48,552 nucleotides of DNA from a virus: UHGV virus genome UHGV-0142349. One strand, 5' to 3'. Position 1 is the first letter of the stretch; every line of letters starts with the position of its first letter. The notes under the pieces are model-generated. The model did no database searches. It had not been told where the DNA came from and saw only the letters and a list, made by a program, of their open reading frames with translations. Positions 649 through 42,641 of this stretch are shown here, in pieces. The position numbers were made by a program, and so were the translations under genes.

Positions 649-1044
649 ATGTCAGCAGAACCAATTTCCGGTACGGCCGTTGCTGCTGGTGGCCTGATGG
701 GTGCCAGTGTTTTTGGTATTGCAACTGGTATTGATTACGGCGTTGTATTCGGGGCATTTGCTGGCGCTGTTTTCTATGTTGCTACAGCGGTGAATATTAG
801 CCGTCTCAAGCTGATTGGCTATTTCTTTACATCGTTCATTGTTGGAGTGATTGGAGCGCCGTTAGTTGGCTCATTTCTTGCCAAATGGACCAGCTACAAC
901 GATCGTCCTCTGGATGCGCTTGGTGCGGTTATTGTGGCTGCATTGACAATTAAAATCCTCACGTTCGTAAACAGCCAGGATCTCGGTAGCATCTTTGGAA
1001 TGCTTTCCCGCTTACGTGGAGGGGGTTCAAATGGTAAGCAGTGA
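649..1044 (+). CDS. putative holin (multi-TMD small membrane protein)
   Basis: 131 aa with about 4 hydrophobic segments; first gene of a cluster followed by endolysin and spanins. Confidence 0.5.
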   Translation: MSAEPISGTAVAAGGLMGASVFGIATGIDYGVVFGAFAGAVFYVATAVNISRLKLIGYFFTSFIVGVIGAPLVGSFLAKWTSYNDRPLDALGAVIVAALTIKILTFVNSQDLGSIFGMLSRLRGGGSNGKQ

Positions 1045-2424: not shown

Positions 2425-2500
2425 GGCCCCTTAGCTCAGTGGTTAGAGCAGGCGACTCATAATCGCACGGTCATCGGTTCAAATCCGGTAGGGGCCACCA
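2425..2500 (+). tRNA. tRNA with CAU anticodon (elongator type; tRNA-Ile2/lysidine-like or Met)
   Basis: 76 nt cloverleaf: acceptor GGCCCCT/AGGGGCC, D-arm GCTC..GAGC, anticodon loop CTCATAA, T-loop TTCAAAT, 3' CCA; G1-C72 pair argues against initiator; 5' half recalled as close to enterobacterial ileX. Confidence 0.85.
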
Positions 2501-27104: not shown

Positions 27105-29483
27105 GTGAGTAAATTATTATTTACGATGACTGACGCCGGGCGTCAGGAGCTGGTTAATGCCAACAAAACAGGAACAAATAAAGTTGAGATTGTTTCTGTT
27201 GGTTTAGGTAGTAGATATTATGTCACGTCAACTTCACAAACAAATATAACAAACGAAATAAAACGACTTACCACAATAGGTGGCAAAGTTGTTTCCCCTG
27301 ATACAATTCATGTAACAGCGAAGGATGATAGTAAAGATGAGTATGTTGTCCATACAATAGGATTGTATACGAATAAGGGTACGTTGTTTGCTGTATACTC
27401 ACAAGAACAAGCAATAATAAATAAAGCATCATCTACTATCGCTTTAATATCAAGTGATATAGCAATTAAAACTCTTGATACTAAAAATATTACATTTGGT
27501 GATATTGAGTTTATTAATCCTCCCGCGACCGAAACTGTTGTTGGGGTGGCAAGATTTGCTAATGAACAAGAAATTGATGCAGGTACAGATGATTCCCTTG
27601 CTGTTTCAGCAAAACGGCTTAAGCAAGCCATTGTGAAACATGAGCAATCACGTAATCATCCTGATGCAACTTTAACCTCAAAAGGTTTTGTTCAACTTAG
27701 CAGCGCCACCAATAGCACGTCTGAAACGCTTGCTGCGACGCCTAAGGCTGTTAAGGCAGCATATGACCTGGCTAATGGCAAATACACCGCACAGGACGCT
27801 ACCACAGCGCGAAAAGGGATTGTTCAGCTCAGTAGTGCCACCAACAGCACGTCTGAAACGCTAGCAGCAACACCAAAGGCTGTTAAGGCAGCGTATGATC
27901 TTGCGGCCGGAAAGGCTCCGTCCAATCACACGCATTCGTGGGAGCAGATAACAAATGTGCCTGTAGCTTCACTGACTGTAAGGGGAATAACTCAGCTCAG
28001 TAGTGCCACCAACAGCACGTCTGAAACACTGGCCGCGACATCGAAAGCTGTAAAGGTGGTAATGGATGAAACGAACAAGAAAGCGCCCCTGAACAGTCCG
28101 GCGCTGACCGGAACACCAACAACACCAACTGCGCCAAAAGGTACTAACAATACTCAGATCGCAAGCACGGCTTATGTTATGGCTGCGATCGCTGCCCTCG
28201 TGGACTCGTCGCCTGACGCGCTGAATACGCTGAACGAGCTGGCTGCGGCGTTGGGCAACGACCCGAATTTTGCGACCACCATGACTAACGCGCTTGCGGG
28301 TAAGCAACCGAAAGATGCCACCCTGACGGCGCTGGCCGGGCTTGCTACTACGGCAGACAGGTTTCCGTATTTTACGGGGAATGATGTCGCCAGCCTGGCA
28401 ACTCTGACAAAAGTCGGGCGGGATATTCTTGCGAAATCGACCGTTGCCGCCGTTATCGAATACCTCGGTTTACAGGAAACGGTAAACAAGGCTGGTAACG
28501 CCGTGCAAAAGACAGGCGATACCTTGTCCGGTGGACTTACTTTTGAAAACGACTCAATCCTTGCCTGGATTCGGAATACTGACTGGGCAAAGATTGGATT
28601 TAAAAATGATGCCGACAGCGACACTGATTCATACATGTGGTTTGAAACAGGCGACAACGGCAATGAATATTTCAAATGGAGAAGCAAACAAAGCACCACA
28701 ACAAAAGACCTGATGAATCTTAAATGGGATGCTTTGTATGTTCTTGTCAATGCCATTGTAAATGGCGAAGTCATATCAAAATCAGCAAACGGCCTACGTA
28801 TTGCTTATGGTAATTACGGATTCTTTATTCGTAATGATGGTTCAAATACATACTTCATGTTGACAAACTCCGGTGACAACATGGGGACTTATAACGGATT
28901 AAGGCCATTATGGATTAATAACGCTACTGGCGCTGTTTCGATGGGGCGTGGCCTTAATGTTTCAGGGGAGACACTTTCAGACCGTTTTGCTATTAACAGC
29001 AGTAATGGTATGTGGATTCAGATGCGCGATAACAACGCTATCTTTGGGAAAAATATAGTTAACACTGATAGCGCTCAGGCGTTGCTTCGCCAGAATCACG
29101 CCGACCGAAAGTTCATGATAGGTGGACTGGGGAACAAGCAATTTGGCATCTACATGATTAATAACTCAAGGACAGCCAATGGCACCGATGGTCAGGCGTA
29201 CATGGATAATAACGGGAACTGGCTTTGCGGCTCGCAAGTTATTCCCGGAAACTATGGCAATTTTGACTCCAGATATGTGAAAGATGTTCGACTTGGTTCA
29301 CAGCAATATTATGGAGTGAACAACTGGCAAACATGGAATTTCCAGTGCCCGTCAGGTCATGTATTGTCTGGTATTAATGTTCAGGATACAGGGTCCAACT
29401 CTGCCGATAATATAGCGGGCGTTTATTACAGACCCGTTCAAAAGTATATAAATGGCACCTGGTATAATGTAGCGAGCGTTTAA
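27105..29483 (+). CDS. tail fiber protein (constant N-terminal part plus invertible C-terminal part)
   Basis: 792 aa; three tandem copies of [19 protein letters not shown] motif; crossover repeat at 28462..28490 inside the gene. Confidence 0.8.
27688..28065 (+). repeat. three ~80-bp direct repeats inside tail fiber gene
   Basis: Repeated nucleotide blocks at about 27688-27772, 27820-27900, 27985-28065. Confidence 0.7.
28462..28490. repeat. left inverted repeat (crossover site) of invertible segment
   Basis: ACCTCGGTTTACAGGAAACGGTAAACAAG; reverse complement matches 31505..31533 with 2 mismatches. Confidence 0.75.
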
Positions 29484-30576: not shown

Positions 30577-31524
30577 TTAAATACTCCCCGCGTTATACCA
30601 CGTTCCATTAATGCAATACTGAATTGGCCTTGCCTGAGTTGTATCAATTAATTCATCACGGTTTCCGTTAACTGACCCCGTAACGACATAACCTGACCTG
30701 TCAGACCAGCCGGGACCATTCCATGTCTGAACAGATGACAGACCGCCAAGACGAATACCTGTAATAAACCTTGAGTTACATTCTGCCTGCGTATATGCAC
30801 CAACATCTCCCGCTGATGGCTTACGTGTTGTGGTGTAAATTTCTGACCAGTCAGCTTCGAATCCGTAACCATCACGCGCTGAACGATAAAAAATACCGCC
30901 GTTCCTGTAATTCACACGGAACTGTACGGCAGGGCAACTCCCCGTATTCATATTGAAGTGGAGGATTAATGTCGATGCGCCACCAATATTTGCGTTATAG
31001 ACCCCGCTATTCCAGTTCCAGCCAACAGCTTTATCATTTCCGACAGTGCTTCCTGTTTGCCCTAAAGCAAATGCAGGCTGCTGGTTTTTCGTGTTGTAGT
31101 CTCGTCGCCAGCCAGGAGCATAAGCATCACCATGATTAATATAAGTGAATTGAGCGTTAGTGATTCCGCCACCGCTGGAAGTGCTCGGGGTGGTTACACG
31201 GATGGTCATGGCTCCTTTATTACCCATAACCTCAATAACGCAACCTGCAAGATGAATAGTTCCACAGCCAGTATCGGTAATAATTTTATTATTGCCGTAT
31301 GACCATGAACATTTGCACATCCAGTATGGGTGATTGAATGCCCCTTGAGAATCAAGCCATTCAATCAATTGTGCCGTTGTCCAGTTCCCTGCCCCTGTAC
31401 TAATAGCACTGTGAAAAGCACGACATGCACCAATATTTTTTGTGAAGGTATCTTTTCCAGGAATATCTGCGCCGTTCTGGTTTTTCTGTAATGCGCCAGA
31501 AGCCTTGTTTATCGTTTCCTGCAA
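30577..31524 (-). CDS. alternative tail fiber C-terminal segment
   Basis: N-terminus (M)QETINKASG parallels LQETVNKAG at crossover in the expressed fiber; likely continues into the right repeat with no own start. Confidence 0.65.
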   Translation of the reverse strand: MQETINKASGALQKNQNGADIPGKDTFTKNIGACRAFHSAISTGAGNWTTAQLIEWLDSQGAFNHPYWMCKCSWSYGNNKIITDTGCGTIHLAGCVIEVMGNKGAMTIRVTTPSTSSGGGITNAQFTYINHGDAYAPGWRRDYNTKNQQPAFALGQTGSTVGNDKAVGWNWNSGVYNANIGGASTLILHFNMNTGSCPAVQFRVNYRNGGIFYRSARDGYGFEADWSEIYTTTRKPSAGDVGAYTQAECNSRFITGIRLGGLSSVQTWNGPGWSDRSGYVVTGSVNGNRDELIDTTQARPIQYCINGTWYNAGSI

Positions 31525-31533
31525 ACCGAGGTT
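31505..31533. repeat. right inverted repeat (crossover site) of invertible segment
   Basis: CTTGTTTATCGTTTCCTGCAAACCGAGGT. Confidence 0.75.
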
Positions 31534-31605
31534 TTTGCGAATTGCCTCTGTGTCGTCTGAACGATATTTTTTCCCGCTTTTAGCAACAATCGCGGTTTAG
31601 AAAGT

Positions 31606-32160
31606 ATGCAATATGGTTATGCGAGGGTGTCAACTTTTGACCAGAATTTGGAATTACAACTGGAGGCGCTCAGGAGTTCAGGATGTGACCGGATTTTTGA
31701 AGATAAAATATCCGGTGCTAAATCAAAACGACCAGGGCTTGATAAGCTACTGAAGGTGTTACGGCCGGGCGATACGGTTATTGTCTGGAAGCTGGATCGA
31801 ATGGGGCGTTCTCTGATTCATCTTGTTGATTTACTTAACCATTTTTTATCAAACAACATTGAGTTTATTTCGATTACGGAAGGGATAAAAATTAGCACTT
31901 CAATTGGCCGCTTTGCCTACACGATGCTGAGTGCAGTCGCAGAGATGGAGCGGGAAAATATGATTGAAAGAACGCGTGCAGGATTGGCGGTGGCAAGGGC
32001 TAATGGCAGGATAGGAGGACGCCGCTCAAAATTGGCCCCAGAGCAATGGGAACAGATCGGAAGGCTTATTGCGAATGGTGTTTCACGTAAGCGGATAGCG
32101 ATTATCTTCGATGTTACCTTATCCACGCTTTACCGCAGGTTTCCGGCTGGGAATCATTGA
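31606..32160 (+). CDS. serine recombinase, DNA invertase (Gin/Hin/Pin/Cin family)
   Basis: N-terminal YARVSTFDQNLELQ with catalytic Ser; small size with C-terminal HTH; adjacent to invertible segment. Confidence 0.85.
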   Translation: MQYGYARVSTFDQNLELQLEALRSSGCDRIFEDKISGAKSKRPGLDKLLKVLRPGDTVIVWKLDRMGRSLIHLVDLLNHFLSNNIEFISITEGIKISTSIGRFAYTMLSAVAEMERENMIERTRAGLAVARANGRIGGRRSKLAPEQWEQIGRLIANGVSRKRIAIIFDVTLSTLYRRFPAGNH

Positions 32161-32341
32161 CTGGAGTTAGGCCAGTAGTATGATGCTCGCAAAACGAGAT
32201 CCAATTTAGATCCTTTTACTGGTGGATTATCGTTCGATCAGTGAGAGACTTCGTGCATGACCGAAAGTGTTGTGGTAGAGTTCTCTTAAAACCACGTAAC
32301 GTGGTTATGATTGTGGGTGTCTGGTTGGAAAGCGACCAGAT

Positions 32342-33319
32342 ATGGAAACAAAAAGCCCGCAGATAAATCTGCGGGCTTCTTGCGACATCCACGGAAAACC
32401 AACAATTAACCATGGGCGCCTCGACAACTCCCATTATACGTTGGTTTTCCGTGGACGCAAGAGCGAACATATGGATAGACCAATGCCGTCTCTACGTTCA
32501 GCTTACGTTTGTAATTTGTCGCCGGAGTTCCAGCCTCCAAAGCACCATACGCACAAGCTGCCGCTGGTGTTATCTGATGCTTTACAGCGCATTAATGGTC
32601 GTGATCTTACGTGTGAGGTTGCGTTCTACGTTAATCAACCGTCAGAGCGGAAACGCCGGATAAACGAGCATCGTCGTCGGGCGATTAATGCTGTGATTGC
32701 TGCGATTTTGCACCATGTAAACATCATTTCTAAGCGGGTTCTGGCCAGTGCTGAGGCGTTGGCTGATTTTTGCGGTCTGTCTACCGTATCCGAAGCTGGG
32801 AACAAGTCTATAACGCGCTGTACAAGGGCGTTGTCGCAACTGAAAGCGTTAGGTTTTATTGATTATGAACGTCGCTGGGATCGGGTGAATAAACAGTATT
32901 GGCCAGCGAAAATAGAGATTCGTGATCAACTGCTGGAAACCGTTGGTATTACTGAACAAGCATGGAGACGTGCGGTTAGCCAGAAACTTAATTACTTCAA
33001 TGCGAAGAATAGCGAACGGCTTAAAAAAGCGATAACGGAGGCTGATTATAAGCGTATTGTTATTCAGGAGCAGATGGAGAATGTATGGCGTCAGAGGAAG
33101 ACGGCCAGAGAGATAAAGGCAAAACAGAAAGCAGCGGAGAGAGCTGCGCGTCTTGTTCGGGAAAAGGGAGAGGCCGAACTTCGTCATCAAATCACTAGAG
33201 AGGTTAGCCAGGAATTTGCTGATGGCATGTATCCTGGAGCTGACCTTGCATATTTACGATCCCTCGTTGAGCAGCGTTATAACAGGTTAAGAAAGACTTG
33301 GAAATCACTCCAACATTAA
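32342..33319 (+). CDS. repA: plasmid replication initiator RepA (IncFII RepA1-like)
   Basis: Segment SITRCTRALSQLKALGFIDYE resembles IncFII RepA1; basic C-terminus; real start may be internal ATG 32471 downstream of leader stem-loops. Confidence 0.65.
   Translation: METKSPQINLRASCDIHGKPTINHGRLDNSHYTLVFRGRKSEHMDRPMPSLRSAYVCNLSPEFQPPKHHTHKLPLVLSDALQRINGRDLTCEVAFYVNQPSERKRRINEHRRRAINAVIAAILHHVNIISKRVLASAEALADFCGLSTVSEAGNKSITRCTRALSQLKALGFIDYERRWDRVNKQYWPAKIEIRDQLLETVGITEQAWRRAVSQKLNYFNAKNSERLKKAITEADYKRIVIQEQMENVWRQRKTAREIKAKQKAAERAARLVREKGEAELRHQITREVSQEFADGMYPGADLAYLRSLVEQRYNRLRKTWKSLQH
32346..32455 (-). ncRNA. putative CopA-like antisense RNA in repA leader
   Basis: On minus strand: 15-bp-stem hairpin (32389..32454) then hairpin 32355..32376 followed by TTTTTGTTT. 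Confidence 0.35.
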
Positions 33320-36602: not shown

Positions 36603-36875
36603 ATGACGGGTTACGAATTGAAATTATGGCGTCGTGGGATGAACTGGACGCAGGAGCGAGCCGCCGAAGAGTTTGGGATATCGTTGGCTACATATAAGCG
36701 ATATGAGAAGGGGGTGCCGCCGAGGGTCATGGAGATGGCCATTCGCGTTCTGTCGTTTGACGATATGGTTAAGGATCTTTCACACCTTGATAAAGATGCG
36801 ATTCTGTTAAGGCTGCAAACCCTTGTATGGGAAAAGGTTAAAGTGTCGGCAGAATTGGAACAAGGGATCAAATGA
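36603..36875 (+). CDS. HTH (XRE-like) DNA-binding protein
   Basis: 90 aa; WTQERAAEEFGISLATYKRYEKG resembles an HTH. Confidence 0.45.
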   Translation: MTGYELKLWRRGMNWTQERAAEEFGISLATYKRYEKGVPPRVMEMAIRVLSFDDMVKDLSHLDKDAILLRLQTLVWEKVKVSAELEQGIK

Positions 36876-37683: not shown

Positions 37684-38952
37684 TTATGGTCTGCTTTTCT
37701 GTGCCAGCTTATCAGCACATGTTTTTATCAGATCCTGTAGTGTCCTGGCTGGCAGGTTTGCATCCAGAACGCTGAGTATGCTGTTGTGATCAGCCTGGTC
37801 GACTACTTTGCCTGTCGGTGGTAGTAGCTTGAGCTGAGGATTCAGGTCCTCGTCAAAGCTGATAAGTGCTCTGGCGTTCCTGAGCAGATCAAGAAGTAAG
37901 GCTGATATCACATTTTCCTGAGTCATTGCTGGCAGACTTAGCGCCGCTTTAGTTTTCTCCGTCGCCTTGTCAAACTCTTTGATTAGTGTCTTGCGGTAGT
38001 TCGGTTCCGTTAATAGCCGATTATGCTCTGTTGCCGCGCGGATAATCGTTTTTTCTTGGTACAGTCGTTTAGCCAGATCACGCTCGTACTGTGTTTTTAA
38101 CACGCTGCTGATAGCGTTAAAGGCTTCAATGTAGGCCAGCTTGATATCTTTTACGCCTGGACCGTCGATGCTCTCCATGAGCAAGGTAAATCCGTCTTTT
38201 GTCATGCGATAGATTGTTATTTCGCGGTCGCTTCCTTCCAACGGTCGTTGCTCTTTAAAGAAATGACGCGCCGCAGCTGTGCGAGGAATGCGTAACGCAT
38301 CGATGGCCATAACGATGGAATTGTTTGTGGTGCTGAATGCCTGGGCAACATCGGCCGAGGTTGTGAGTGGCTCGTTATTGCACACCTTAATGTAAAACAT
38401 CGGTTTGGCGTTGAGCGTATCGACAACCTCACGAGCATTGTTTGGCGAGACGGTTACGGTCGCGGCCGTTTGCGCGTTCTGGTTGAAGTAGCAGTCTTCC
38501 AGCCGTTCGAACACATCCCACGCTTGGTTAGTTTCAAGCATTTTGGCGTGACGTGCAGCCCCGCGTTCTGTCCAGAGAATGAGGGAGCGAACGTTACGGG
38601 CGATTTTCACAGAGTGACTTTTAGTTACCTTGTGGTTAACAGAGTAGTTTAAAACTACTCTGTGCTCGTCGCTCTCTCTTTTAGAGGGGGCGTCATTAAC
38701 TGAATCTCTTAAAGAGTTTTTGTTCTTCACATCATTATCTTGAGTCACTTTGTGCTTTAACTCTCGAAGTTCGTTACCTTCAATTTTGAAGTAGTGCTTA
38801 CCTTCAATGAAGCGTTCCTTATTCTCATGATGATTTTGTCGAATGCGTACAGGAGATACGCCGTAAAGCTGTGCCAGTAACTCGGTAGTAATGACAGGGA
38901 TTTGGTTATGCAGGATAGGCTGTAGGGTGTTAACGGTCGGAAGCGTTTTCAT
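37684..38952 (-). CDS. antirepressor (KilA-N/ORF6N-like N-domain, Ant-like)
   Basis: 422 aa; N-terminal ITTELLAQLYGVSPVRIRQNHHENKERFIEGKHYFKIEGNELRELK resembles ORF6N/KilA-N. Confidence 0.65.
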   Translation of the reverse strand: MKTLPTVNTLQPILHNQIPVITTELLAQLYGVSPVRIRQNHHENKERFIEGKHYFKIEGNELRELKHKVTQDNDVKNKNSLRDSVNDAPSKRESDEHRVVLNYSVNHKVTKSHSVKIARNVRSLILWTERGAARHAKMLETNQAWDVFERLEDCYFNQNAQTAATVTVSPNNAREVVDTLNAKPMFYIKVCNNEPLTTSADVAQAFSTTNNSIVMAIDALRIPRTAAARHFFKEQRPLEGSDREITIYRMTKDGFTLLMESIDGPGVKDIKLAYIEAFNAISSVLKTQYERDLAKRLYQEKTIIRAATEHNRLLTEPNYRKTLIKEFDKATEKTKAALSLPAMTQENVISALLLDLLRNARALISFDEDLNPQLKLLPPTGKVVDQADHNSILSVLDANLPARTLQDLIKTCADKLAQKSRP

Positions 38953-39176
38953 TTTGCACCTCCCATAACTACTTTGGTTACGAGGGAGATTTTTGCGTCA
39001 GAAACAGCGTTATCGTTGCTGGCGATGCGCATAGCTTCGCGCTCGATGATTTCAGCCAGGCGGAATTTATCGGCGTATGAGGCTTTCTTGAGAAGGATCT
39101 TTACGAGGTTGACGTAATAGTCATGGGGTAGGTTTGTCATTGTGATATCTCCAGTATATGGAACTATCACCGCCAT
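38949..39176 (-). CDS. small protein upstream of antirepressor (possible regulator)
   Basis: 75 aa overlapping ant start; start may be internal Met. Confidence 0.35.
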   Translation of the reverse strand: MAVIVPYTGDITMTNLPHDYYVNLVKILLKKASYADKFRLAEIIEREAMRIASNDNAVSDAKISLVTKVVMGGAK

Positions 39177-39435
39177 TCGAGGCTAATCAAATGGTGGTGA
39201 GCCGTACAGGGTTAGCCTTACCGGACACAATGACGAACCGGCGCGGATTTCTCCGCCCCTGTACGACCCACCATAATTTGGGCGTAACAGTGCTCTACGC
39301 ATAAAAAAACCGCTAACGCGGTATGCGCCATCGTGTTATTCAGGAGGCTAATCCCGACCGTAGATTTTGCTACGGCTCGGAAAGTGTCCACCAATGGCGC
39401 ATTCATGTCAATACGGCGGGATTTTAACAGAGACA

Positions 39436-39448
39436 ACCACATAGCGTG
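39436..39448. promoter_or_regulatory. operator-like site CCACATAGCGTGG upstream of ant operon
   Basis: Matches CCACAT-N3-GTGG motif seen in repressor/cro intergenic region. Confidence 0.45.
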
Positions 39449-39473
39449 GGTTTATTGGTAGGCAGAAACAAAA

Positions 39474-39498
39474 AAACCGCCCTATTGAGGACGGTTCT
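39474..39498 (-). terminator. minus-strand rho-independent terminator
   Basis: Hairpin accgccct/aggacggt with A7 before on + strand (T-run after on minus). Confidence 0.45.
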
Positions 39499-39893
39499 TT
39501 CGTGCTGATCGGATTCGCGGTCCTTTCAGCATTACGTTGTTGTATAAACAACCACGCAAGCACAAGCAGCAAATTGATTTTACTCAAAAGGTAATAATAG
39601 TCCACTATTATACATCAAAAAATTGTGGTTCTTGTTGTGTCAGCAAACTCACAGATTGTGGGTAGGTTACTGATTTTGTGAAAATAAACTGTTTTTTTCG
39701 TTTAATTTCTTTCCTATTACTAATCTTAAAATAATCGTAAAATACCTGTGGACCTTCCCGCCGATTCGCACCCGGGCACCGACTTTAGGGGAGGATTTCC
39801 TGTTGCCGTACATGCAAGCACAAGCAGCCGTGCTTGCTCTCGCGTTGTTTTCGTCGGTGGGGATGCCGTGAAACGGCCTGTAAGGGCCATACA

Positions 39894-40016
39894 ATGAAAA
39901 AATACTGTATGTGTATTTTTATCGTTGTTACTGGAGCTTTGTTTACGCCACATGGGGAGGGTTGGAAGATTACTGATAACGCTCTGAATGTGACGATAAA
40001 CATTAGCAGCAAGTAG
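39894..40016 (+). CDS. small hydrophobic protein (40 aa), candidate type I toxin-like peptide
   Basis: MKKYCMCIFIVVTGALFTPHGEGWKITDNALNVTINISSK; followed by terminator at 40022..40045. Confidence 0.3.
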   Translation: MKKYCMCIFIVVTGALFTPHGEGWKITDNALNVTINISSK

Positions 40017-40021
40017 CGATT

Positions 40022-40045
40022 AGGCCCCTTCGGGGGCCTTTTTTA
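40022..40045 (+). terminator. rho-independent terminator
   Basis: ggcccc-ttcg-ggggcc then TTTTTT. Confidence 0.65.
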
Positions 40046-40515: not shown

Positions 40516-40527
40516 GTGTATCCCCTC

Positions 40528-40563
40528 TTATATAAATCTATAAAACTATAATTATATATTACG
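40528..40563. repeat. AT-rich near-palindromic motif copy
   Basis: TTATATAAATCTATAAAACTATAATTATATATTAC. Confidence 0.5.
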
Positions 40564-41212: not shown

Positions 41213-41235
41213 TTGTCGAGACTCCATGTGTTTGG

Positions 41236-41340
41236 TTATATAATTATATAAATCTATATTTATAGAACGAGGTAAGCATAACCAACTTTTTGGCGGATGA
41301 AAAGCGTTTTATATAATTATATAAATCTATAATCATATAA
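41236..41340. repeat. two direct copies of AT-rich motif upstream of parA (candidate centromere/operator)
   Basis: TTATATAATTATATAAATCTATA at 41236-41258 and 41308-41330. Confidence 0.55.
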
Positions 41341-41737: not shown

Positions 41738-41773
41738 GCGTAGCCTCTTTTATACTTTTACATGTTGTCAAAA

Positions 41774-41792
41774 CCACAAAATGTGGTTTTTT
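41774..41792. promoter_or_regulatory. palindrome AAACCACAAAATGTGGTTT (operator-like and/or bidirectional terminator)
   Basis: Perfect inverted repeat flanked by A/T runs; shares CCACA..TGTGG core with sites at 42524-42641 and 39436. Confidence 0.45.
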
Positions 41793-41829
41793 TGAGCGTA
41801 GAAATGCACGGCTTTCGCCGTGCTGTGTA

Positions 41830-42486
41830 TCATAACCAGTTGACAACACTAACTACGCGGCCAAGAACTTTATAACGCTTAAATTCCTCGTTATTCAGAT
41901 GCTTAGTGTTCATTTCAGCATCCCTTTCGGTTGACAGCATAACAGCATTGTCACCCGGTATGACTCTACAGTGCCTCAAAACAACCAGGCCATTTCTGTC
42001 TTCAAGGGCATAGATCCCCTCATGAATCTCTGTATCGTCTGTATCAATCAGGACTTGGGAGCCAGGGGATATTGTTGGTGACATTAACTCATCGTTGCTC
42101 TGGAGAACTGACAGAGACGATGGGTTGATGTTCTTGCTTCGTAGAATCTCCTGTTCTATCGCCAGCACTGGCTTTTCTCCGGCGTGCGATGCTATGTCAT
42201 TTTTTATAGCTACAAGCCCAGGAATAACAGGAGCGTTAGTATTCTGGGGTGGGAACGGGTTATCTGTTAAGCACGCGATATAAGGCGCTGATGCTTTCAG
42301 GGCGTGCGCGATTTTCTTGATGGCAGGTATAGATGGTTGTCTTAATCCGGCCTCATAGTTCTGCAAGGTGCTTAAGCCTATTCCAGTGACTTGCTGGAGA
42401 TCTCCGGCAGTCATGCCGGATTGTTTCCGTAGAGTCTGAATGCGCAGACCTATTTCTTTCTTGATGTTCTCGTCGTTGCTTTTCAT
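41830..42486 (-). CDS. CI-like repressor (N-terminal HTH, C-terminal S24/LexA-like peptidase domain)
   Basis: HTH in the N-terminal part and an S24-like C-terminal domain; divergent from Cro-like gene. Confidence 0.75.
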   Translation of the reverse strand: MKSNDENIKKEIGLRIQTLRKQSGMTAGDLQQVTGIGLSTLQNYEAGLRQPSIPAIKKIAHALKASAPYIACLTDNPFPPQNTNAPVIPGLVAIKNDIASHAGEKPVLAIEQEILRSKNINPSSLSVLQSNDELMSPTISPGSQVLIDTDDTEIHEGIYALEDRNGLVVLRHCRVIPGDNAVMLSTERDAEMNTKHLNNEEFKRYKVLGRVVSVVNWL

Positions 42487-42523
42487 GTCTCATCAATCGT
42501 GAATGGTGGGTTATTTATACATT

Positions 42524-42641
42524 ACCACATTTAGTGGTTTTCACATGGTAAGACGAGAGGTGGACCACAAATAGAAGGTTATTTTTTGTTTCGCCCATTG
42601 AAAAACTCACGATATGTGGTTTTAATACCACATATCGTGGT
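42524..42641. promoter_or_regulatory. operator region with inverted-repeat sites (CCACAT-N3-GTGG type)
   Basis: ACCACATTTAGTGGT (42524-42538); CACGATATGTGG (42608-42619) and CCACATATCGTGG (42628-42640) form a larger palindrome. Confidence 0.55.

Follow-up and report, generated by a model that had tools for sequence, protein, structure and literature searches.

A conserved ACCAC-N5-GTGGT palindrome as the probable operator of a CI-like repressor in a circular phage-plasmid

The immunity region and its phage-plasmid

The virus genome UHGV-0142349, a stretch of 48,552 nucleotides analysed here at its full length (hereafter the window), is a whole circular phage-plasmid of ~48.5 kb that encodes contractile-tail and head proteins, a Hin-type invertase, a ParA partition locus, an IncFII-family RepA, a CI-like repressor, and an anti-repressor operon. 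At its immunity locus, the gene for the CI-like repressor of 218 amino acids (aa) and a divergent rightward operon are separated by a region (OR) that contains three inverted repeats, while further copies of the same repeat lie downstream of the repressor gene, upstream of repA, and upstream of the anti-repressor (ant) operon (Table 1). It is proposed here, at a probability of about 0.78, that this repeat, ACCAC(R)-N3-(Y)GTGGT, serves as the operator of the CI-like repressor, and that the lytic switch, repA and the ant operon would thereby belong to one regulon.

The region is 95% identical to that of the infectious Yersinia pestis phages vB_YpM_39, vB_YpM_41 and vB_YpM_44, which have 49-kb circular genomes, and it is 97-99% identical to ~60 non-mobilizable plasmids of 47-50 kb from Escherichia coli, E. 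fergusonii, E. albertii and Klebsiella, one such near-identical plasmid, NZ_CP009073, being carried by the reference strain E. coli ATCC 25922. The immunity region was present in 72 of 5,426 complete E. coli genomes, with every full-length copy located on a 47-50-kb plasmid. The repressor family comprises 13 clusters at 90% identity, its members other than the near-identical copies being 61-67% identical to the window protein, and the longer contigs that encode family members are of phage-plasmid size. The relatives compared were a Yersinia phage (L001), elements from Salmonella (L002 and L003, with ~69% nucleotide identity to the window in the immunity region), Escherichia-lineage plasmids (L004-L007), and elements from Citrobacter freundii (L008 and L009), C. 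amalonaticus (L010), Klebsiella aerogenes (L011) and Yokenella (L012). No description of regulation in this phage-plasmid family was found in the searchable literature, and the plasmid pSLy3, considered as a possible literature counterpart, was rejected because it belongs to the SSU5-type group.

Sequence, enrichment and conservation of the proposed operator motif

The palindrome is best written as ACCAC-N5-GTGGT or, with positions 6 and 10 usually being R and Y, as ACCAC(R)-N3-(Y)GTGGT, and it is usually embedded in runs of A and T (AAA...TTT). The preliminary description of this DNA had given it as CCACAT-N3-GTGG and listed five inverted-repeat sites, all of which are found where it had placed them; its palindrome was correctly recognised, whereas a sixth site at 32291-32305 had been overlooked, and the site reported as 42608-42619 in fact extends over 42606-42620 with an imperfect left half. 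The window thus holds six strong copies, all of them non-coding. Matches with at most one mismatch number 8 against 0.81 expected, a count reached in 0 of 100 shuffles, and the core CCAC-N5-GTGG occurs 6 times against 0.50 expected. A symmetric 21-bp weight matrix, trained on 23 orthologous sites of other genomes and including neither window sites nor ant sites, ranked these same six positions highest in the window (41773, 32291, 42627, 42524, 42606 and 39436, in descending order; scores in Table 1). The next matches scored 12.3 and 10.8 bits, leaving a gap of ~10 bits, and the genome-wide maximum in simulated sequences had a mean of 8.7 and a 95th percentile of 14.3 bits. A match at 27270 within a tail-fibre open reading frame (ORF) reached 6.3 bits and was rejected as chance. 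A comparable restriction to non-coding DNA is seen in the RefSeq-annotated Salmonella element L002, in which all five sites fall within the non-coding 18% of the DNA (P ~2e-4).

Every relative has the motif at the same positions (the repA site wherever that region was covered), with half-sites that are invariant and spacers that vary freely across the Salmonella, Citrobacter, Klebsiella and Yokenella relatives. This enrichment, placement and cross-lineage conservation of the motif, like the domain content of the repressor and the loss of its catalytic residues described below, are direct observations. The conservation of positions and half-sites across six lineages agrees with the earlier suggestion that the sites are repressor operators. 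The alternative raised at the same time, namely that the motifs are only intrinsic terminator hairpins, does not apply to five of the six sites: O1, O2, O3, the repA site and the ant site are all placed in 5' regulatory regions, and predicted folding is weak (-5.6 kcal/mol for O3 and -4.4 kcal/mol for the ant site). Two other roles were also considered and rejected: the motif does not correspond to a partition centromere, since the par locus has its own phased repeats and no ACCAC site, nor to DNA-invertase crossover sites, since the Hix-like AAACC-NN-GGTTT sites differ from it. A gene for a 90-aa helix-turn-helix (HTH) protein contains, in the Salmonella and C. freundii lineage, a copy of the motif with one mismatch, TCCACCACGCGTGGT, that is absent from the window's orthologue; this copy is probably a coding-sequence coincidence.

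Probable operators between the repressor gene and the divergent operon

An alignment of 12 OR sequences shows that invariance is concentrated in the half-sites, where 28 of 30 positions never vary; among spacer positions this holds for 3 of 15, and among the remaining positions for 53 of 129 (Fisher 1e-6 and 8e-8, respectively, from counts that ignore phylogenetic non-independence). The O3 core is conserved in 12 of 12 distinct relatives, and O1 is likewise conserved in the relatives of this alignment. In the window and its relatives, O2 and O1 are always spaced 21 bp from centre to centre, while the third site, O3, is found in the relatives 82-83 bp from this pair, beside the repressor start. 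The preliminary description had already recognised three sites between the repressor and the divergent gene, and this arrangement stands as a classic operator layout; its label of the divergent gene as Cro-like remains unconfirmed, as the 164-aa product has no Pfam or NCBIfam match and belongs only to PHROG 7452, a family of unknown function.

The sequence around O2 and O1 is compatible with a rightward promoter (PR). A -35-like hexamer lies directly to the left of O2 and occupies the same alignment column throughout; the window sequence is TTGAAA, which is replaced by TTGATA in the Salmonella and C. freundii lineage and by TTGCTT in C. amalonaticus. O1 is followed by a GGAG ribosome-binding site and the start codon. 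The A/T-rich linker of 6 bp between O2 and O1 would be the only room for the PR -10 element, and O1 would cover the expected PR start site. On the minus strand, a -10-like TATAAA occurs 4 nt downstream of O3, which probably lies in the spacer of the repressor's own promoter; this position, together with the distance of 38 bp from the repressor start codon, suggests autoregulation.

Candidate operators at the replicon, the ant operon and the 3' end of the repressor gene

The sixth site stands ~190 bp upstream of the repA coding start in both the window and its relatives, and it is conserved in 7 of 7 relatives that cover the region. RepA is assigned to the NCBIfam family RepA_IncFII_LM with 231 bits (cutoff 70); its mechanically called ORF starts at 32342, and the 277-aa product annotated in relatives implies a start near 32486. 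The operator is predicted to overlap a repA promoter. The leader that follows resembles an IncFII/IncL-M control region, in that the GC-rich hairpin with a U-run listed in Table 1 is likely to be the terminator of a CopA/RNAI-like antisense RNA of ~100 nt, such a hairpin being characteristic of these terminators in IncFII-like replicons. Structured-RNA matches on the minus strand at 32346-32456 are all sub-threshold, with no Rfam family reaching its threshold.

The ant operon begins with an isrK-like RNA, whose model starts 7 nt downstream of the TTGACA-17-GACACT promoter, and continues with a C4 antisense RNA, a 75-aa ORF at the icd position, and the anti-repressor gene, whose product matches several anti-repressor PHROGs (to 1e-59). 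Both RNAs were also found in L002 and L003, and protein family searches found no homology of the 75-aa ORF to Icd. A putative extended -10 promoter, TGtTAAAAT (39429-39421, minus strand), would have its -35 and spacer covered by the candidate operator upstream of this operon; transcription starts are predicted near 39414 for this promoter and near 39376 for the conserved one. The candidate operator is retained in L001 and L004-L007, that is, in every Escherichia-lineage relative examined, beside three different cargo junctions; the E. albertii copy has an altered flank and spacer and intact half-sites. The C. amalonaticus element has the site at the same 24 nt upstream of the same -35, with unrelated sequence in between and again a TGn-TAnAnT element, and a matching motif site is present in the ant region of the Yokenella element.

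The distribution of this site follows that of neighbouring genes. In Salmonella and C. freundii, the ant leader comes directly after the parA-82aa-49aa operon, there is no cargo, and the ant operator is absent. Inserted cargo separates the parA operon from ant in the Escherichia lineage, C. amalonaticus and Yokenella, all of which have the ant site; lineages without cargo thus have no ant operator, and lineages with cargo and a terminator have one. Gain or loss of the ant operator may have accompanied the cargo insertions by which ant is uncoupled from the parA operon. The window cargo is a ryfA/timP-like locus with a terminator, consisting of a ryfA RNA (Rfam 143.5 bits) and a TimP-like small hydrophobic ORF at 39748-40044 (plus strand) and 39452-39747, and the same slot is occupied by HTH regulator genes in ATCC 25922, E. 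albertii and the Yersinia phage. Because the operator is absent in the Salmonella and C. freundii lineages, control of ant by this route would be lineage-specific; the earlier claim that the regulon includes the anti-repressor is credible where the site has been retained (21.9 bits in the window) and does not extend to these two lineages.

The site downstream of the repressor gene, at 41773, is the most perfect palindrome of the six, AAAACCACA-AAA-TGTGGTTTT, with the top score in the window, and it occurs at the orthologous position in every relative. As RNA, the palindrome 41770-41790 would fold into a stem of 9 bp and a loop of 3 nt (minus strand, -9.3 kcal/mol; plus strand, -10.2 kcal/mol); the corresponding hairpin of relatives attains -11.5 to -11.7 kcal/mol, and U5-6 comes after it on the sense strand. 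The repressor gene also has a separate intrinsic terminator, whose stem is conserved and whose loop is variable in relatives. The 41773 site may be an auxiliary operator, possibly looping to OR 750-850 bp away, and may double as a second terminator.

Table 1. Positions of the candidate operators and associated features in the window (matrix scores in bits; the last row refers to relatives)
Feature	Position	Strand	Score	Remarks
Operator O3, ACCACATTTAGTGGT	42524..42538		26.0	38 bp upstream of repressor start codon
Operator O2, CTCACGATATGTGGT	42606..42620		23.0	Degenerate left half; in PR spacer
Operator O1, ACCACATATCGTGGT	42627..42641		30.1	Over predicted PR start; 20 bp upstream of first rightward gene
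'OL' site, ACCACAAAATGTGGT	41773..41787		30.8	Core of 21-bp palindrome 41770-41790; between repressor terminator and 124-aa gene
Candidate ant operator, ACCACATAGCGTGGG	39436..39450		21.9	24 nt upstream of -35 of ant-operon promoter
repA operator, ACCACGTAACGTGGT	32291..32305		30.5	Perfect site; abuts -10-like TATGAT 32306-11
Repressor gene, 218 aa	41830..42486	-		HTH_3 N-terminal and catalytically dead S24-like C-terminal domain
Repressor intrinsic terminator, GCACGGC-loop-GCCGUGC	41806..41823	-		-15.0 kcal/mol, z = -4.6
-35-like hexamer TTGAAA of PR	42598..42603	+		Conserved column; putative promoter
Asymmetric element, ACCACAAATAGAAGG	42564..42578	+		Conserved; one operator-like half-site, then GRAGG
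First rightward-operon gene, 164 aa	42661..43155	+		cro position; PHROG 7452, function unknown
Promoter TTGACA-17-GACACT of isrK/C4/ant operon	39383..39411	-		Identical in all lineages having it
isrK-like RNA	39376..39303	-		Rfam 65.7 bits (gathering score 50)
C4 antisense RNA, RF01695	39278..39190	-		Rfam 70.8 bits (gathering score 45)
75-aa ORF at icd position	39176..38949	-		Overlaps ant start (38952) by 4 nt
Anti-repressor gene, 422 aa, ORF6N and Rha domains	within 37684..39176	-		ORF6N 5.9e-20, Phage_pRha 4.5e-12
repA, IncFII-family replication initiator gene	32486..33319	+		Pfam IncFII_repA 1.3e-43
GC-rich hairpin and U-run in repA leader	32350..32376	-		Block invariant in Salmonella relatives
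One-mismatch motif copies, TCCACCACGCGTGGT	L002 18290-18304; L003 24459-24473; L008 15512-15526; L009 13925-13939			Inside 90-aa HTH gene

The repressor protein and the question of SOS induction

The repressor matches Pfam HTH_3 above the cutoff (4.5e-11) and PHROG 4, a transcriptional repressor family (1.8e-27). Its HTH is almost wholly invariant across the family, strictly so at residues 12-22 and 34-49, which fits the unchanged half-site. The C-terminal domain falls below threshold for Peptidase_S24 (20 bits against a cutoff of 23.3), and no precomputed Pfam S24 match exists among the members of the repressor family. However, a profile of this domain retrieved 473 relatives, and in an alignment of 60 sequences, 54 match PF00717 Peptidase_S24 (best 3.7e-24), so that the S24 homology is real. 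Other approaches gave little: searches against PDB sequences with the single protein and the family profile returned HTH matches only and none for the C-terminal domain, BLASTP of the repressor against LexA gave no match, AlphaFold2 with a 12-sequence family alignment modelled the C-terminal domain at a predicted local distance difference test score (pLDDT) below 50, and hhalign of the family against LexA, lambda CI and UmuD was weak (E 0.2) and served only as a consistency check.

The same alignment indicates that the catalytic residues have been lost. The nucleophile column (G-D-S-M) holds Leu134, which is invariant in the family, against Ser in 35 of 55 distant relatives, and the general-base column (V-K-R) holds Arg171, equally invariant, against Lys in 33 of 55. 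The family alignment contains no invariant lysine anywhere in the C-terminal domain, and the cleavage-site columns, Ala102-Gly103 in the window, read A-G, S-G, T-G or a gap among family members. Self-cleavage of the repressor is therefore very unlikely. LexA boxes are not enriched either: the window has one perfect CTGT-N8-ACAG, inside structural genes, and 17 boxes at one mismatch against 14.8 expected, none of them near the immunity or ant regions. The preliminary description had reasoned from an S24/LexA-like domain to an SOS-linked switch; the domain is indeed homologous, but with Ser replaced by Leu and Lys by Arg, this reasoning is not supported, and a DNA-damage link of the repressor is doubtful.

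Comparison with known phage and plasmid systems

The closest parallel appears to be the immB region of N15 and phiKO2, in which the repressor CB binds three OR operators as well as OL operators that overlap the repA promoter, so that repA transcription and copy number fall, and in which CB has no Ala-Gly/Ser/Lys self-cleavage apparatus (PMC4997575). N15 also has a separate anti-repressor system, with induction proceeding through the LexA-controlled antC (PMC4488713). The present element shares with these a phage-plasmid lifestyle, divergent repressor and lytic genes with three operators in between, operator placement upstream of the replication gene, a CI-like two-domain repressor without self-cleavage apparatus, and a separate anti-repressor system. 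The differences are equally clear. The repressor and N15 CB share 24% identity along 165 aa, most of it within the HTH (pairwise E 9e-5), and the operator is unrelated, since N15 uses a 16-bp T-A-N10-T-A site in place of ACCAC-N5-GTGGT. Here repA is of the IncFII type with an antisense-RNA-type leader, has a single site rather than two, and lies 9.5 kb from the repressor, whereas the N15 repA encodes a giant primase-helicase and is next to cB. The genome is circular and has no telomerase, unlike the linear N15 and phiKO2, and the LexA-controlled antC of N15 has no visible counterpart in the window. The system thus appears to be analogous to CB without being a member of the CB protein family. 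In function, it would resemble the immB of N15 and phiKO2, with lytic switch and replication under one repressor, combined with a P1-type immI module.

The ant operon itself has the features of a P1 immI or N15 immA-type module. In P1, the C1 repressor is reported to control one of the two immI promoters through Op51, and it recognises an asymmetric 17-bp site. Here, by contrast, the primary repressor is an HTH/S24-like protein and the site is palindromic, the anti-repressor has ORF6N and Rha domains and may differ from Ant1/2, an isrK-like RNA precedes C4, and the ant operator exists in some lineages only. What is shared with the immI of P1 and P7 is a C4-family antisense RNA in the leader, a small ORF overlapping the anti-repressor start, and the status of a secondary immunity/anti-immunity module of a plasmid prophage (for P1, see PMC8546580).

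A likeness to lambda CI/Cro is also evident in the divergent genes, the three dyad operators with a close pair over the lytic promoter and a third by the repressor gene, and a repressor that combines an HTH with an S24-fold domain. Unlike in the lambda OR, however, O3 does not adjoin O2 but lies 82 bp away, 5 bp separate the half-sites, and no recognisable Cro family member is encoded. With the catalytic dyad lost, RecA-mediated cleavage is not expected, and assignment to the lambda-type self-cleaving CI repressors was rejected despite the HTH and S24 homology. Gifsy-type and 186-type prophages, which are induced by anti-repressors, likewise combine a non-cleavable repressor with a dedicated anti-repressor, whose gene is directly repressed by LexA (PMC3121763). 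The present element has the same pairing but no LexA box, and the candidate control would instead lie with the prophage repressor and the C4 and isrK RNAs; isrK, as its Rfam family name indicates, was first described in the Gifsy-1 region.

Proposed regulatory scheme and alternative explanations

In the scheme proposed here, a dimer of the repressor would read the two ACCAC half-sites. O2 and O1, separated by two helical turns, would enclose the -10 region and extend over the spacer and start of PR, so that repressor bound there would silence the divergent operon, and binding at O3 in the repressor's own promoter region would provide autoregulation. Binding at the 32291 site, which heads the repA leader, would restrain plasmid replication in the lysogen until induction lifts this restraint, in the manner of N15 CB. 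The 39436 site over the upstream promoter of the isrK-C4-icd-like-ant operon would allow anti-repressor transcription to rise once repression weakens, a feed-forward arrangement like that of P1 immI, and the 41773 site may serve as an auxiliary or looping operator, as a second terminator hairpin, or in both capacities. Inactivation of the repressor would probably depend on the anti-repressor and not on RecA-stimulated self-cleavage, as its S24-like domain has no Ser/Lys dyad.

Several points weigh against this scheme. The identity of the binder, the promoter assignments and the direction of each regulatory effect are deduced from sequence only. A consensus promoter scanner left PR, the repressor's own promoter, the repA-site promoter and the ant upstream promoter uncalled, and the predicted PR -10, TTTAAT, is without the canonical A2, so that the promoters are weakly defined. 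Since a strong promoter-like TTGACT-16-TATGAT (predicted start near 32191) precedes the repA operator by 100 bp, at the end of hin (32157-32184, plus strand), the repressor could block a second repA promoter (predicted start near 32318) or act there as no more than a roadblock. The ant site deviates from the motif at one position and is missing in two lineages. Between the 41773 site and the next gene, no convincing -35/-10 pair is present in the 24 nt before the Shine-Dalgarno sequence, and the site doubles as a plausible RNA hairpin, whose symmetric A..T to G..C change between the window and Salmonella would also be explained by a stem. Binding of the Cro-like product, or of a different HTH protein, to these sites is also conceivable.

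This last point has a stronger form, in which the main binder is not the 218-aa repressor but the 164-aa first rightward product or the 90-aa HTH protein (36603..36875). Cro-type proteins normally share operators with CI, the 164-aa product is an orphan without a family, and the element encodes several HTH proteins; nevertheless, such a reassignment seems decidedly unlikely in view of a layout typical of CI operators (three between divergent genes, the pair over the lytic promoter and one by the repressor promoter), the match between an invariant repressor HTH and an invariant half-site across orthologues that are 61-67% identical, and the precedent of N15 CB for a repressor that controls repA. 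It is also unlikely that 41770-41790 is only a terminator or attenuator hairpin with an incidental likeness to the operator. The hairpin folds well at a gene 3' end, relatives add U5-6, the window/Salmonella difference preserves a stem pair, and no promoter is evident beside it, but a much stronger terminator (-15 kcal/mol) already separates it from the repressor stop codon, and the U-run changes strand by lineage (a plus-strand T7 in the window, a sense-strand T6 in Salmonella). In the ATCC 25922 copy, ACCACAAATCGTGGT, the sixth stem pair is broken while both half-sites are kept, and the site is the genome's best match to a matrix built from promoter-region sites.

For the 39436 site, it is conceivable, if somewhat unlikely, that it is non-functional and that the ant operon is governed by the C4 and isrK RNAs and a constitutive promoter only, outside the repressor regulon. 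The site has a single mismatch (GTGGG) and the lowest score of the six, the Salmonella and C. freundii lineages have the same ant leader without it, its centre is ~67 bp upstream of the start of the conserved promoter and hence too far for simple occlusion, and the extended -10 promoter beside it is itself only a prediction. Yet its 21.9 bits exceed the 95th percentile of the simulated genome-wide maxima (14.3 bits), the GTGGG ending also occurs in bona fide O1 sites of Salmonella, and the site has been kept at three unrelated cargo junctions, with half-sites that outlast changes of flank and spacer in E. albertii. The C. amalonaticus site, at 24 nt from the same -35 and with a TGn-TAnAnT element within different intervening sequence, and the Yokenella match point the same way, and control of the ant operon by this operator is regarded as credible but lineage-specific. 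By comparison, a LexA/lambda-CI-type self-cleaving repressor with directly SOS-driven induction is highly improbable. It would accord with the S24 homology of the C-terminal domain (54 of 60 sequences) and with Ala102-Gly103 in the window protein, but every family member has Leu in the nucleophile column and Arg in the general-base column, neither an invariant lysine nor a conserved Ala-Gly exists, precomputed S24 matches are missing in the family, and the CB proteins of N15 and phiKO2 show the same loss of cleavage residues (PMC4997575). On balance, a CI-like repressor acting through the shared palindrome and countered by its anti-repressor remains the preferred interpretation.

Additional sequence features of the element

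An asymmetric element, ACCAC-N5-GRAGG(TT), occurs exactly twice in the window (0.10 expected), at 484-506 and 42564-42586, and twice in every relative that covers both regions (L001-L003 and L008-L012). One copy lies in the middle of the intergenic region between the repressor and the lytic genes. The other belongs to the late/lysis leader (core 484-498), upstream of a strong terminator (598-630) and the holin gene (649..1044), and includes the conserved block TTTTTTATTGnnCAAnTAACCAC..GAAGGTT. The element may be a late-regulator site or a hybrid site that shares the repressor half-site; a hybrid site could let the repressor, or a second factor with the same half-site, couple the switch to late gene expression.

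The par locus contains AT-rich repeats with 8-bp phasing, TTATATAA / ATCTATAA, at 41228-41340 and 40520-40559, located upstream of parA and between parA and the 82-aa gene, which are likely to represent the partition centromere or operator of a type Ib ParA system. Hix/gix-like sites, ATACCTCGGTTT and AAACCGAGGTTT, are found at 28460-28471 and 31523-31534, near hin (31606..32160), and bracket ~3 kb with the 3' part of a tail-fibre gene and oppositely oriented tail-fibre and assembly ORFs; this arrangement identifies the bracketed stretch as a predicted invertible host-range segment like Mu G or P1 C. A tRNA gene is present at 2425-2497 (plus strand, Rfam 67 bits), and in the Yersinia phage relative a tRNA-Met is annotated in the corresponding part of the genome, after the lysis genes. 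In addition, a CRISPR array on the chromosome of E. coli strain GMF054 (NZ_CM183924.1 1098072-1098104) is 100% identical over 33 bp to positions 42191-42223 within the repressor gene, and because of this match some E. coli appear to carry a spacer against this phage-plasmid.

Implications

The principle of a single repressor acting on both lysis and replication has already been established for N15 and P1. A further synthesis can be offered only tentatively, and as a whole it is somewhat improbable: one dead S24-type repressor may have joined modules of different origins, namely a lambda-like switch, an IncFII-type replicon and a P1-type C4/isrK operon, with an ant operator that tracks the cargo and an ACCAC-N5-GRAGG element that couples the switch to late genes. 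The six-site regulon in itself is readily testable. Under this regulon, one protein would switch plasmid copy number, the lytic genes and the expression of the anti-repressor, and induction is predicted to proceed via the anti-repressor, not by self-cleavage of the repressor. Since this phage-plasmid family is common, yet essentially uncharacterised, such a regulon may be of use in annotating and engineering these elements, and may help to explain how phage-plasmids couple their replication mode to the lysis-lysogeny decision.

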